DNA of 57,614 bases, filler included, from Dugesia japonica (Eukaryota), in NCBI GenBank assembly GCA_001938525.1. It is 5 parts of 5 records of this genome, joined end to end, with 100 filler letters (N's around TTAATTAATTAA, not from the genome) between each part and the next. Parts side by side here need not be neighbours in the genome. Positions count along the whole stretch, not along the records: positions 1 to 16,674 come from MQRL01630713.1; 4 more parts are not named here. One strand, given 5' to 3'. Below, one piece after another: positions 8,811 to 16,674 of this stretch (positions are counted from its first letter, which is position 1; each line of letters begins with the position of its first letter). The translations under genes were made by a program, and so were the position numbers. The notes under the pieces were generated by a model that did not search any database, was not told where the DNA came from, and saw only the letters and a list, made by a program, of their open reading frames with translations.

Positions 8811-9129
8811 GATTTTCAAAAATATGATGAAATGTAACGTTTGATTTGTTTATATACTAATTGAATACACACTTAATTTAATTGATACGATAAAAAAAAT
8901 AATTTTCGTATCAATTCTTAATAATATAAATGAAAATTTTAATTAATCTTTAAATCAAATTAAATAAAATTTTAATTAATCTATAAATAAAATTAATTAA
9001 AAATTCTATATACTAAAACTTTACAATAAAACTTAAATTTACATTAAAACTTAAATCTACTACAAAAATTTAAATTAAACTTAACAATAAAAATATTCCT
9101 AATAAAACTTGCACAGTACAATACATTTA

Positions 9130-9482
9130 TTTAATACGAAATTGCATCCGCCATGCTGTTTTCATATTAGGCAATGTTGACCACAGGCTTTCGATAGCCA
9201 TTGTTGATACTGTGTTCTATTATAAATAATAGACTTAGATAAACTTGATAGTTGCCAGACTAGTATTGATGGATAATAAAATCCAAATGAATCAAATACT
9301 AGAATATGTTCCGGTTTATAATAAACCGCTAACCAATATGCACATCCGAGATTTGAGCTCTAAGTCTTGATCACCAGTGTTCTATTGACTGAAATATATG
9401 GAATTTTGTCTAATGGAAATACTCCTAACCAATCTGATTCTAACCATTCTTTTCCGATTTTATCGATCTAAATTGAACTTAT
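9130..9482 (-). pseudogene. Adenain-like (C5) Polinton maturation protease
   Basis: WLGVFPLDKIP...LVIKT*SSNLGCAYWLAVYY...VFDSFG...YNRTQYQQWLSKACGQHC. The catalytic His of the HW motif is replaced by Tyr; Asp, Gln and Cys are retained. Confidence 0.88.
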
Positions 9483-9571
9483 TAAAAAAATTAATTATTT
9501 AAATAATAAAATCTTACTTCATTTTCTTAAAATTTTGTAACAGTGAGATTGTTTAAACCAAAATGGATTGT

Positions 9572-10747
9572 TTAAAGAAATAATTTTCTCTTGACAGTAA
9601 TTTAAATCTCGTTTTCAGAAACTCCATAAATTATTGCATATGCTGGTGATGACAAAGGTGTTTCAAATTTTATATCTAACTTGAGATTTCAATGCATTGG
9701 TAATTGACTCTGATTAATATCAAAATCTGGAGCTAGCACAAAGGTGAAAAATGGATATTTGGTCTTAAAATCTTCAAATGTTATTCCACAATTCTTGTTA
9801 AGATATCCCAAGTTCCTAACTATTGATTACATATATGATGTACTATAATCACCATTTTTAAAGTCTTGCGTGTAAGTCTCTCTGTACCCGCCGTTTCTTG
9901 ATAGAGTTAATGATGTAACATTGAAATTATCGAAAAATGAGCTTTGTATTTTAAAGCTTCCTTTATATCGTTCGCCATCTTGAAATGCAACTAGAATAAA
10001 GTTTGACAATCGAAGATGTCCAAAGATTTGCTCCTTATTAAACGATGAAATGTCTTTACTAATTGCATATGATACAATTTCATTGGGTTTTTAGGATAAA
10101 TAACATTTTGTGTTGTTAATCCAATTTGATGAGCTGTTAGTACTAATGAATCTACTTGAACTCTTCTTACCATTAGTTTTGCATCCAATAATTTATATTT
10201 TGGTTTATCAATATGGGATTTTAAACACATTCTAGGGTTTGCTCTTTTCAATCGAATTTGAGCATTACTACCTGGAATAAGATTTTTTGGTTTATCCATA
10301 AAATCTATTTACAAAGGACCACATAGAGACCATGGTTTTGATGATTTAATGATTGTTTTTCTAAATTCATTCTTTAAATAACCAATTGCAGTAAGACATA
10401 GATCCTTTGTATCTCTATTATAATTCAAAATAGTTTCAATTAATGCTTTGGGAATATAAGTTCCATTTCCACCTTCAACTTTAATATTATTTAATTGAGG
10501 AATTACATCTTAGAATAGAGTATGCAACATGAAACTCCCAGGTACTACATCAGACTTTGGTTCCAAATCCTTTCCATTCTTGTCTACTATTTTTACTTGA
10601 ACATACGATAGATTATCATTCAAATCCAAATATTCAGTTTGCAATCCATTTAGAAAAAATTCTACATCATTTCTTTTTTCAAAAATATTATTCATTGGAA
10701 ACACATCTTCAATAACACCTTGAAGTGATGGTCAATCGAAAATACAT
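9572..10747 (-). pseudogene. Polinton major capsid protein (double jelly-roll, PY)
   Basis: VEFFLNG..EYLDLND..YVQVKIV...LHTLF, KALIETILNY, QIRLKRA, AKLMVRRVQV, FTFVLAPD and NLKLDIKFETPL are typical Polinton MCP blocks. Several stops and frameshifts. Confidence 0.88.
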
Positions 10748-10759
10748 AATTATGTTTTT

Positions 10760-11137
10760 CTACAAATCATCGAATATGGTTTTACAACTTTTCAATCGTT
10801 TGTTTATACTTGTCAAGATAGAACTCTTACGTTTTATTCCACGACCTTTAAGATTTTCTTCATTCTCAGGTTTTGACATAATTTTTGAAAGTTCTCCAGA
10901 ATCCACAAAGTTGTTAAATTCATTCATTCCATTTGTTTTGAGTGATGGTAAAATTTTTGTTTTATTATTTATTACATCCTGTGCGGTTTTCATTCCAATT
11001 GCACGTCTAAGAACAGGTAAAGTAAATCGACCAATTGTTGGCAACCATCCAGACTCAAACTCGCTTCCTACAAAGTATGGCAATTCTCCATCAGTTTGAC
11101 TAGTACTATAAAGTGTAATAATATCGGGATTAGACAT
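10760..11137 (-). CDS. Polinton pVII-like core protein (protease substrate)
   Basis: LPYFVGSEFESGWLPTIGRFTLPVL resembles the YFxGxQxGxG..FR.A.P motif, followed by a basic LKGRGIKRK tail. It lies between penton and MCP, as in other Polintons. Confidence 0.65.
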   Translation of the reverse strand: MSNPDIITLYSTSQTDGELPYFVGSEFESGWLPTIGRFTLPVLRRAIGMKTAQDVINNKTKILPSLKTNGMNEFNNFVDSGELSKIMSKPENEENLKGRGIKRKSSILTSINKRLKSCKTIFDDL

Positions 11138-11138
11138 T

Positions 11139-14561: not shown

Positions 14562-14588
14562 TCTTCAAAAATTTATTATTCATAAATA

Positions 14589-15046
14589 ATGATTGCAAAT
14601 ATTAATTATAGAGGAAAAGTTGATGAAGAAGTAACCAGAAAAATGAGATTTCTAATTGGAAAACTTGCTCAAGCTGTAGAGAAAACAGACAAATATACTT
14701 TTATATTCTTTCAATCAGGAAGCTGTAGAATCATGGGATGTAAGAAACTGATAACACCAAAGGATTTAAAGTATAATATCCAAAATCTTCAATTACNNNN
14801 NNNNNNNNNNATAATTTGAGGATTATCATTAATTTACATGAATTATCCAAAGTAATCAAATGTATTTCTGAACCAGAAATATTTCCAGGATTAAGAATTT
14901 CAAAATATGATCCGATATGTGTTAATTTATTTTCAAGTGGAAAGATTGTACTAGTTGGAATAAAAAACTTTTATTATCAATCAATTATTAATGTAATATT
15001 AAAAGAATTAATTAATTTAATTAACAATTTAAATACAGTTTTTTAA
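14589..15046 (+). CDS. TATA-binding-protein-like gene carried by the Polinton (two ORF halves separated by a 14-N gap)
   Basis: Repeat 1: IANINYRG...TFIFFQSGSCRIMGCK. Repeat 2: INLHELS..IKCISEPEIFPGLRISKYDPICVNLFSSGKIVLVGIK, versus canonical TBP YEPELFPGLIYRM..P...LIFxSGKxVLTGAK. Confidence 0.85.
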
Positions 15047-15080
15047 ATCAAGTGATTGTAAGAATTGTACATTTTTTAAA

Positions 15081-15783
15081 ATGGATGATGTAATCTTGTC
15101 AGAAAAACAAAAGCAAATGTTGAAAGAAATATAATTATGTAATCAAGATGTTGTTATCGAAGATGATGATAACTTCATGATATCTTTCATGAAATGGCAT
15201 GGAAAAATTATTATTCCAAAAATTATTTCAGAGACAAAAAATTGTTTATCGTCGAAGTATGAAGATTATCTCAAACAAATGTAAAGTTAACGTTGCCGAT
15301 AATATAACAAATTTATTCAATCTTGATCCATCTATCGATGCAATGGAAGAAATACCAAACAATGAAATCATCCTTTATCGGCATAAATTAGAAGAAACAT
15401 AACAAATCGGTCTGCAAGCTCTTATTCAGATTCAATTTCTTAACTGTCTTGTGATAATTCTCAAAAGATAAGAATAGATGGATAAACTTCAATTTAATCC
15501 GGAAACGTTAGAAAATATGTCATTTCTAATGGAAAATTTAGTTAAATTTCATAAACTTGATATGTTCACAGTAGCAAATGAGTTTTATGAGAATGAAAAA
15601 GAATCAATAATCAAAGAATTCAATGATGATTTAAGTTATTCAAGTCCCGAATCAATAAATCAAGTTCAAATGAATATAAAACTAAAAGCACTCTCAATTG
15701 CATTAAGACAGCATAATGAATGCAGAATGGAAAGAAATCCAAATACTTTAAGTAATTCTTGTTACTTTAACAATTTATTTTAA
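15081..15783 (+). pseudogene. One or two unknown Polinton ORFs downstream of the TBP-like gene
   Basis: ATG at 15081, coding-like frames 15199-15402 and 15478-15783, AATAAA near 15847. No motif recognised. Confidence 0.45.
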
Positions 15784-15943
15784 TATTATAATTTTAGTTG
15801 CCACTGGAACAATCACTGGAACATAGAATAATATGTGATTGAATTAAATAAACGTTACTGTTTTATACGTGTTTTGATTTATAATAAAGATAAATAAAAA
15901 GTTAAAAAAAATAATAAGACAAAGTATTTGTTAATAATAATAT

Positions 15944-16341
15944 TTATTCAATAAAGTTTTTAATGGATTTAATTTTTCAAAGAGGTTTGACTATATCTTG
16001 AAGACTTTTGTAACCAAATATTTGAACAATAATCATTGCTTTTTCATTTTGAACCTTATCCTATTCGTCTATTTTCATATTGCTGTTGACTCTGGCAAAC
16101 AATTAATTTAATGTTTTAAGATCATTAGCACTTATGTTTGAAATCAAAAGATCATATAAGCACAGTTTTAGTTTTACCAGGTCCTAAATAAAAGTTTTAA
16201 TAAAGTAATTAATAATTATAAAAGTACTTGCAATGTGTACATGATTGGTTTCGTAAAGTTCACCAATTCATATTTGTAGTAATTGGTTGGCTTTCCACAT
16301 TTGAAAACCAATGTAGACGCATTATCTTTAGTCAATGTCAT
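15944..16341 (-). pseudogene. Spliced Polinton accessory gene with BC-box-like motif
   Basis: Exon 1 (16341-16228) is exactly 38 codons. A 44-nt GTACTT..TTTAG intron (16227-16184) precedes an in-frame exon 2. The junction reads TLQ|DLVKLKL. Upstream TATAAACA at 16382-16389. Confidence 0.5.
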
Positions 16342-16674
16342 TGATATTATTTTGAAATAATGAATACTAAATTAAAGATTCTGTTTATATAGGTTTTAAA
16401 ACGTGTGTATAATTAGATTTTGTTGATACAGTAAAATAATTGATTTTAGAATATTCTAATTGAAATTATTAAAAATTAATTTCTTTAAAATTAAATCAAC
16501 ATTATTATTGTATTGTGAGTAACCCGCACTAAGTACTTGTATTTTATCAAATTACTATATTAAGGTTAAGGAGTGATCATTTTAGGTTTACAAATTCTTA
16601 CTCATCGTTAAATTCTCTATCGAATAGACAGTATAATGTTTAAATTCGAGTTACTCTTTCAAATTTCATTATTT

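Follow-up and report, generated by a model that had tools for sequence, protein, structure and literature searches.

Two promoter-like motif classes and a divergent TBP-like gene in a decayed Polinton of Dugesia japonica

A decayed Polinton and its late-type box

The stretch of DNA under study, called the window throughout, is 57.6 kb of gapped eukaryotic DNA with 25% GC from Dugesia japonica (assembly GCA_001938525.1), and at about 5.5-17.7 kb it holds a decayed copy of a Polinton. The minus strand of the element carries genes for polymerase B, protease, major capsid, a PX-like open reading frame (ORF), a putative minor capsid protein, integrase and packaging ATPase, and the plus strand carries a gene that resembles the one for TATA-binding protein (TBP), back to back with the packaging ATPase gene. 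The labels "minor capsid" and "PX" are presumed from Polinton gene order. A first-pass annotation of this DNA had taken the region for a Polinton and had written of an element TBP with an altered half-saddle; this is supported, the N-terminal half of the TBP-like gene being degenerate. Several of the genes lie as follows, with L numbers standing for related loci and P numbers for intact homologous proteins.

5493-6989, minus strand: DNA polymerase B, protein-primed, decayed and truncated (Pfam DNA_pol_B_2, E 4.9e-10)
9162-9467, minus strand: adenovirus-type protease gene, decayed (L016 homologue matches Peptidase_C5 at 1e-5; homology in the window)
9575-10770, minus strand: major capsid gene, decayed (homology; intact relative P0283)
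12100-13140, minus strand: rve integrase with chromodomain, decayed (Pfam rve E 0.0013, chromodomain E 0.0036; tblastn to the L021 integrase, E 9e-97)
13880-14497, minus strand: A32-like packaging ATPase, decayed (L021 homologue matches Pox_A32 at 1e-6; homology in the window)
14589-15046, plus strand: TBP-like gene with a gap at 14797-14810 and its halves in different frames (Pfam TBP, 2.9e-7)

Three hallmarks of Polintons/Mavericks are present, partly by way of intact relatives: a protein-primed polymerase B (pPolB), an rve integrase and a morphogenesis module of capsid, A32-like ATPase and protease. The intact capsid relative P0283, which is 100% identical to the L021 capsid query, has a predicted double jelly-roll fold, and the capsid model matches those of iridovirus, PBCV-1 and virophages at E 1e-12 to 6e-17. 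A search of 4620-19000 for terminal inverted repeats and a target-site duplication gave no convincing inverted pair in this decayed copy and gapped assembly. The family is multi-copy in its host, with 384-413 contig records per run aligning to a 151-nt stretch in three runs. Since most genes of the present copy are broken, any promoter signal in it is a fossil of an active family.

On the minus strand of 8480-17700, the 8-mer TATAAACA occurs 12 times where 0.8-1.2 copies are expected, and the plus strand has none. No 8-mer ranks higher on the minus strand of the element (12 vs 0.78 expected), and outside the element TATAAACA is not enriched. Two copies lie within the GTATCAA-associated TATA boxes described in the next section; the remaining 10, listed here, lack a GTATCAA 15-45 nt upstream. 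As a motif, the non-canonical box holds up, for the most part at places other than the GTATCAA sites.

10801-10808, minus strand: late-type box preceding the ATG of the major capsid gene (10770) by 38 nt
11231-11238, minus strand: late-type box preceding the small PX-like ORF by 101 nt (L016, L021 and L087: 98-107 nt)
12180-12187, minus strand: late-type box preceding the ATG of the putative minor capsid gene (12105) by 82 nt
13199-13278, minus strand: two late-type boxes (13271-13278 and 13199-13206), the second 66 nt before the integrase ATG (13140)
13551-13558, minus strand: late-type box ahead of a decayed gene; the homologue in L006 weakly matches adenovirus protein X (Pfam E 0.005)
13884-13891, minus strand: late-type box inside the last ATPase codons, 37 nt before the ATG (13854) of the post-ATPase gene
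14540-14547, minus strand: late-type box TATAAACA preceding the ATG of the packaging ATPase (14497) by 50 nt
16955-17647, minus strand: two more TATAAACA boxes (16955-16962 and 17640-17647) before decayed sequence (motif search)

The ATPase-facing box at 14540-14547, whose position and sequence the first-pass annotation had given correctly, stands back to back with the TBP promoter and has no same-strand gene just upstream.

Related elements were gathered by protein searches, which gave an intact homologue of the TBP (P0001), 94 proteins at E <1e-10 and 80 metagenome loci. TATAAAC(A/G) was counted in 22 of 84 loci (73 kb), namely the best TBP matches L005-L027 minus the near-duplicate L017, with L028 and weaker matches omitted; the GTATCAA pair was sought in all 84 loci, and the codon-context test and the tallies over 62 boxes come from 13 loci. 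Some of these loci may be close kin and hence not independent. In the 22 loci, the TBP strand carries 36 of 38 TATAAAC(A/G) sites, and for 25 of the 38 an ORF starts 28-50 nt further downstream (background 5.8%). The late-box consensus is (T/C)ATAAAC(A/G), and its distance to the ATG has its mode at 33-37 nt. In Polintons with this TBP clade, counting ATPase, post-ATPase, integrase, minor capsid, PX, major capsid and protease genes together, 30 of 32 have a box at most 125 nt upstream (6/6 in the window and 24/26 in relatives). The box precedes none of 21 TBP genes and none of three polymerase genes. The C at position 7 is fixed, the first base is C in 16 of 62 boxes, and 16 of 62 end in G; L024, whose capsid is 28% identical, has mainly the C form. 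L087, which was retrieved by its ATPase, also has a TBP (E 2e-50) and the box. The sequence concerned, L087:1-12666, is a near-complete Polinton contig within a bacterial metagenome-assembled genome record, probably through binning contamination.

The box behaves as a DNA-level signal. Contexts coding for x-Ile-Asn-x near ORF ends spell the box in 17 of 22 cases, where codon use would lead one to expect 1.5, and in ORF interiors such contexts spell it in 4 of 36; the late box is thus kept at synonymous sites, i.e., it is conserved at the level of DNA. One could nonetheless read the recurring box not as a promoter but as something that arises from the context of stop codons, from peptide motifs or from a signal for 3' ends, given that 15 of the 62 boxes take in the TAA stop codon of the upstream gene, that 93 of 120 ATPase homologues terminate in Tyr-Lys-Gln, and that the core of the box is one base from AATAAA. 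However, 47 of the 62 sites are clear of any stop codon, the synonymous-site excess remains, the boxes of divergent promoters (14547 in the window, and on the minus strand of L006) have no upstream same-strand gene, and in all 21 cases the interval between TBP and the genes upstream of it is free of the box, and we hold such a by-product to be very improbable.

Three GTATCAA-TATA pairs

The first-pass annotation had seen at three Polinton transcription starts a common layout, with GTATCAA upstream of a TATAAA(C/T)A box, and had joined the two into a single grammar, tentatively matched to the TBP of the element. All of its coordinates are exact: TATAAACA at 8847-8854 with GTATCAA at 8882-8888 on the minus strand (spacer 27 nt as named), GTATCAA at 14520-14526 with TATAAATA at 14552-14559 on the plus strand (spacer 25 nt), and TATAAACA at 16382-16389 with GTATCAA at 16423-16429 on the minus strand (spacer 33 nt as named). 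The three pairs are real, but the box class does not hold, since all three are canonical TATA boxes: the two minus-strand sites are TATATAAA, offset 2 nt upstream of the TATAAACA register, and the plus-strand site is TATAAATA. In the canonical register, the GTATCAA spacers are 25, 25 and 31 nt.

8847-8856, minus strand: canonical TATATAAA box (8849-8856) that includes TATAAACA in the +2 register, with initiator-like TCATA 29 nt downstream
8882-8888, minus strand: GTATCAA word of putative early-type promoter 1 (motif search)
14520-14526, plus strand: GTATCAA word of the putative TBP-gene promoter (motif search; sibling-copy contigs)
14552-14584, plus strand: canonical TATAAATA box and initiator-like TCATA (14580-14584), before the TBP-like gene (motif search)
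15960-16341, minus strand: decayed small gene behind promoter 3 (weak homology, E 8e-5 to 7e-3)
16359-16391, minus strand: canonical TATATAAA box (16384-16391) and initiator-like TCATT (16359-16363) (motif search)
16423-16429, minus strand: GTATCAA word of putative early-type promoter 3 (motif search)

The whole window has just these three GTATCAA-TATA pairs. Markov models of order 1-3 give an expectation of 0.00-0.05 pairs, and three pairs were reached in 0 of 200 runs per order, for a pattern that was defined post hoc. Three random 60-nt windows from the element share some 7-mer in 2.0% of cases, or in 0.3% if the word must have at least two G/C, and among the upstream regions of other TATA boxes 13 of 520 triples share a 7-mer. 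Because the pattern was chosen after looking, and the corrected chance of a common 7-mer is about 2%, the GTATCAA link across the three promoters is modestly supported.

The layout of Pol II promoters with a TATA box (TATAWAWR) and an initiator-like word about 28-30 nt downstream is present at 8856, 14552 and 16391. Of 20 canonical TATAWAWR boxes in 5480-17700, searched at +24 to +34, three have an initiator-like TCA(T/G)(T/A) at +28/+29; these are the same three boxes that carry GTATCAA 25, 25 and 31 nt upstream, and the other 17 have neither feature at that spacing. In the host flank, the initiator word is found at 4 of 81 TATA boxes and GTATCAA at 0 of 81. Since the initiator word was not a selection criterion, it offers independent support that the three sites are promoters. 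Judged by their sequence, the three pairs are likely early-type promoters read by host TBP, and transcription would start at them. The initiator word accompanies 2 of 58 late boxes vs 8 of 10 TATATAAG boxes. The TBP genes of relatives have a canonical TATA box 36-49 nt upstream in 8 of 21 cases and an initiator word within 30 nt in 15 of 21. Homologues of the small gene behind promoter 3 cluster with TBP in L005, L007, L008 and L010, by weak matches. Downstream of promoter 1 (8856), an intron-like stretch follows and the sequence runs into an assembly gap. In L024:7066-8300, early-type promoters with TATAAATA and TCATT are followed by a splice-donor-like word, CAG/GTACG, which suggests short spliced leaders.

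In contigs of sibling copies, no variant at 15% or above is listed in GTATCAA or either TATA box of 14520-14559, while 12 other positions vary; a hand estimate puts the chance of this pattern at about 0.13, hence it is weak. This pattern, together with three pairs that each stand before a gene start, speaks for GTATCAA and TATAAA(C/T)A as one composite site for the element TBP, as the first-pass annotation proposed. Against that proposal, the boxes are canonical with initiator words, one of them fronts TBP itself, the GTATCAA-TATA pair is absent from 84 of 84 related loci, and GTATCAA is found at 0 of 20 of the relatives' TBP promoters despite the conserved DNA face of TBP. The composite site is already largely refuted across lineages, conservation of the motif pair fails beyond the immediate family, and we give this version hardly any credence. 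Two motif classes had been merged. The part that survives is a non-canonical, element-specific TATAAAC box, which is conserved and tracks the TBP clade and to which that TBP may bind.

For GTATCAA, the odds are about even that it is a family-specific upstream site for a host activator, which would act in this one family. Its reverse includes TGATAC, a named SIX3 motif in the accessible text of PMC5465582, which provides a lead, and a lead only, towards a SIX-family site. A second, inverted GTATCAA lies at 8908-8914 on the plus strand, about 19 nt from the first, and the resulting inverted repeat spans 8878-8918 upstream of promoter 1, possibly as a dimeric or bidirectional site.

The TBP-like protein as candidate reader

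The intact homologue P0001 (153 aa) is 86% identical to the window TBP over the C-terminal half. Its AlphaFold2 model is a two-repeat TBP saddle (pLDDT 97) that aligns to human TBP with Z 13.7 and rmsd 2.5 over 147 residues, the next unrelated fold scoring Z 7.0, and in an Atlas search the matches were TBP clusters only. In what we take to be yeast residue numbering, mapped through canonical-looking TBPs, the near-invariant substitutions relative to yeast TBP are V71>N, F99>P, V122>R, T124>M, N159>S, V161>T, V203>C and L205>N. Among 44 family members, the element residue is found at V122 in 43 (R), T124 in 44 (M), L205 in 43 (N), V203 in 41 (C), N159 in 40 (S), V71 in 37 (N) and V161 in 37 (T). 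The first intercalating Phe (the F99 position) aligns with a conserved Pro and the other three are kept, and the canonical TBP-family set of four intercalating Phe plus minor-groove residues is incomplete in the element TBP. With the cellular TBP family (PF00352) it shares the saddle fold, three of the four intercalating Phe and the YEPExFP stirrup of the second repeat. It differs from cellular TBP in a shortened first repeat (helix H2 and stirrup reduced), in the proline at F99, and in conserved polar or charged residues where cellular TBP is hydrophobic, including two TBPm3 positions.

It is on the predicted DNA face that the changes cluster. Of the three residues that alter TATA specificity in TBPm3, two are V203 and L205; the TBPm3 changes I194F, V203T and L205V act on the second base pair, according to the accessible text of PMC1636458. 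Since the TBPm3 residues act on the second base pair, the second-repeat changes of the element TBP should be turned towards the 5' half of the box, and symmetry would place the first-repeat changes opposite the 3' half with its fixed C. The stirrup glutamates of the second repeat are kept, which suggests that host TFIIB could still dock. We infer that the element TBP binds the late box and recruits host TFIIB and Pol II.

Polintons with other TBP lineages offer a comparison. L033 and L080 have other residues at the substituted positions, and together they have the box before 0 of 13 late-type genes. In L080, all 5 copies of YATGCAAA are followed by an ORF at a distance of 30-47 nt; across L080:3202-9728, this octamer-like box stands before five ORFs, including the ATPase and a putative minor capsid gene. 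In L033 there are 10 GTAAGAA-type sites, and 7-180 nt downstream of every one an ORF starts on the same strand; L033 also has an enriched word CGTAAGAA (6 vs 0.33) that is reminiscent of baculovirus TAAG late promoters. At L033:1302-2728, a two-repeat TBP-like gene lies near a gene for a PC4 coactivator-like protein (Pfam E 3.6e-21). In the TBP tree, the TBPs of box-bearing elements fall on one side of a 97/94 branch, with L047 and L049 labelled box-less on little late-gene sequence.

A Polinton lacking TBP was sought as a further comparison. Viral-contig scans with TBP, ATPase, capsid and integrase queries yielded no Polinton at all (one alignment being too diverse to scan), a phage collection gave no match, and a genome-contig scan gave L087, which has a TBP, and the 3-kb L088. 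In the supplements of PMC8097293 and PMC10748475, the motif and TBP have 0 occurrences, the presence of DNA sequence in those files being unconfirmed.

These comparisons bear on whether host TBP/TFIID alone might read both classes, with the late box as a weak TATA that works after template replication and the element TBP otherwise employed, e.g., in competing with host TBP or in binding replication ends. Host TBP tolerates C at position 7, as TATAAACG retained 27% activity in Arabidopsis protoplasts in the accessible part of PMC10005294, and a C(-25) TATA variant has been crystallised with wild-type TBP (1qn3, from the accessible entry). Moreover, EBV BcRF1 binds TATA and TATT alike in vitro in what is accessible of PMC4893493, so that specificity need not lie in a viral TBP. 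On the other side, C is common at TATA position 1 (dominant in L024) and fixed at position 7, Polintons with other TBP lineages have another box or none, and the near-invariant TBP changes fall on the predicted DNA face. We consider host TBP alone unlikely, if still a serious contender.

The late box might also be bound by a different factor, either a host forkhead-type protein or a small early-cluster protein of the element, with or without TBP as a partner. ATAAACA fits the forkhead consensus, which we take to be RYAAAYA, several conserved unannotated early genes adjoin TBP, and L033 has its PC4-like coactivator near its TBP. Herpesviruses, for their part, require five partners besides the viral TBP (vTBP), per the accessible text of PMC4893493. 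Yet the strict coding-strand orientation and the 33-37 nt mode before the ATG point to a core-promoter element and not an enhancer site, and the forkhead fit is impaired by the sites that end in G and by a first base that is T or C and not a purine. We think a different factor improbable, the more so than host TBP alone.

A possible early-to-late switch

Our preferred reading, which we hold to be somewhat better than an even bet on the sequence evidence, is of a decayed Polinton with two promoter-like classes: an early class of TATA box, initiator and GTATCAA read by the host, and a late box read by the element TBP. Host Pol II would start at the three TATA-plus-initiator promoters, aided by a factor on GTATCAA, and this early transcription would yield the element TBP and other early products. 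In turn, the late boxes, poor sites for host TBP, would be bound by the element TBP, and the particle and integrase genes would be turned on. An intact element TBP would, relative to host TBP, prefer (T/C)ATAAAC(A/G) over TATAAAAG.

Several observations weigh against this reading, beside the stop-codon overlap and the activity of C-containing boxes with host TBP given above. The terminal Tyr-Lys of the ATPase is kept even in elements without the box, 10 of the 62 boxes have no ORF start within 150 nt, the ATPase of L088 (a 3-kb fragment) has TATAAAAA in place of the box, and the L021 minor capsid and L016 protease genes lack an exact box; in addition, the gene starts were chosen by homology and two are not ATG. 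GTATCAA is neither positioned nor strand-biased in relatives (9 plus, 8 minus), a fourth GTATCAA lies 10 nt before TATAAATG with no initiator (8908/8925), and two early-type boxes also include TATAAACA, so that the early and late classes overlap. The ATPase and capsid trees need two changes, yet a single backbone origin of the box is found in 21% and 12% of bootstrap trees. The box and the TBP share ancestry, and with two contrasting lineages that have late genes (L033 and L080) the comparison cannot prove co-evolution. Since the scans described above gave no TBP-less Polinton, the box may also be older than, or independent of, the TBP gene.

The closest parallel to the preferred reading is the late system of beta- and gammaherpesviruses (EBV BcRF1, KSHV/MHV68 ORF24 and HCMV UL87, with a TATT box), which likewise has a virus-encoded TBP-like protein and a non-canonical TATA box before structural genes, as the box here precedes virion and integrase genes and not TBP genes. 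Early herpesvirus promoters combine upstream elements with a canonical TATA box, and late ones have a lone variant box, according to the accessible text of PMC4893493. The differences are that the herpesvirus vTBP has about 10% identity to cellular TBP and works in a six-protein complex, whereas the Polinton protein is free-standing, 144-177 aa long and clearly similar to cellular TBP, and that the box changes TATA positions 7 and 1 and not position 4. Neighbouring early genes have no Pfam match, no search aimed at homologues of the herpesvirus partners having been made. By analogy, the Polinton system would work like the herpesvirus late system without being a member of it.

Among Polintons/Mavericks/adintoviruses, the element is typical in its pPolB, rve integrase, A32-like ATPase, adenovirus-type protease and double jelly-roll capsid. 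How Polintons express capsid genes, and whether they form particles without a helper virus, is an open question. Promoters of virophages and Polinton-like viruses copy motifs of their giant helper viruses; these too are small integrating dsDNA viruses with, in the accessible accounts, a common motif before virion genes. The Polinton differs in that the likely reader is encoded by the element itself and the early boxes resemble host Pol II promoters, which would point to nuclear, helper-independent transcription.

In the accessible text of Starrett et al. (PMC8502044, 10.1101/697771), TBP occurs in figure legends only and "promoter" 0 times in the main text, and the accessible texts of PMC10748475, PMC8097293, PMC11071296 and 10.64898/2026.06.19.733378 have 0 mentions of TBP or TATA. 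We found no description in the accessible literature on Polinton, Maverick or adintovirus promoters, TBP or late genes, which subscription papers, Repbase reports or supplements could hold. The present analysis contributes a distinct early class, which accounts for the three sites, along with a test at synonymous sites and the box of L080.

Short oligonucleotides and one small protein are enough for a direct test of the early promoter, the late box and their candidate reader, and the late box is also a practical marker of gene starts in these elements. If the pairing is true, it would represent a second, independent origin of a herpesvirus-style TBP switch and would supply natural TBP specificity variants that reach TATA positions 1 and 7. 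We would put it at an even chance that this is the smallest known self-contained early-to-late switch, in which a host-read promoter makes one re-engineered TBP that selects a lineage-specific TATA variant on all particle genes, with different lineages having evolved different TBP-box pairs (YATAAAC(A/G), YATGCAAA and possibly CGTAAGAA) as a natural altered-specificity series.

RNA was sought in three raw runs and one contig run at 85% likeness. The raw runs gave 79, 2302 and 153 reads, and since none is 99% alike, the reads come from sibling copies; these few reads show no pile-up of read starts near any box and are of mixed strand. Directly after the TBP gene, at 15080-15783, lie two small plus-strand ORFs with no convincing Pfam match, which are possible candidate TBP partners. 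Sibling-copy RNA of run X12 over 15080-15783 is mostly sense, provided that the library is of the usual stranded type.

A second Polinton copy, more decayed and in the opposite orientation, occupies 1094-4800 of the window and retains remnants of ATPase and polymerase with 65-75% identity to the main copy; its stretch 1094-1647 matches across the ATPase promoter at 73%, with the boxes eroded. Elsewhere, the window holds a remnant of an LTR-retrotransposon-type integrase (61-874), a remnant of a hAT transposase with a BED finger (20652-21861), a 25-nt tandem repeat array (27176-27403) and an inverted repeat around gap-rich sequence (46313-47742).

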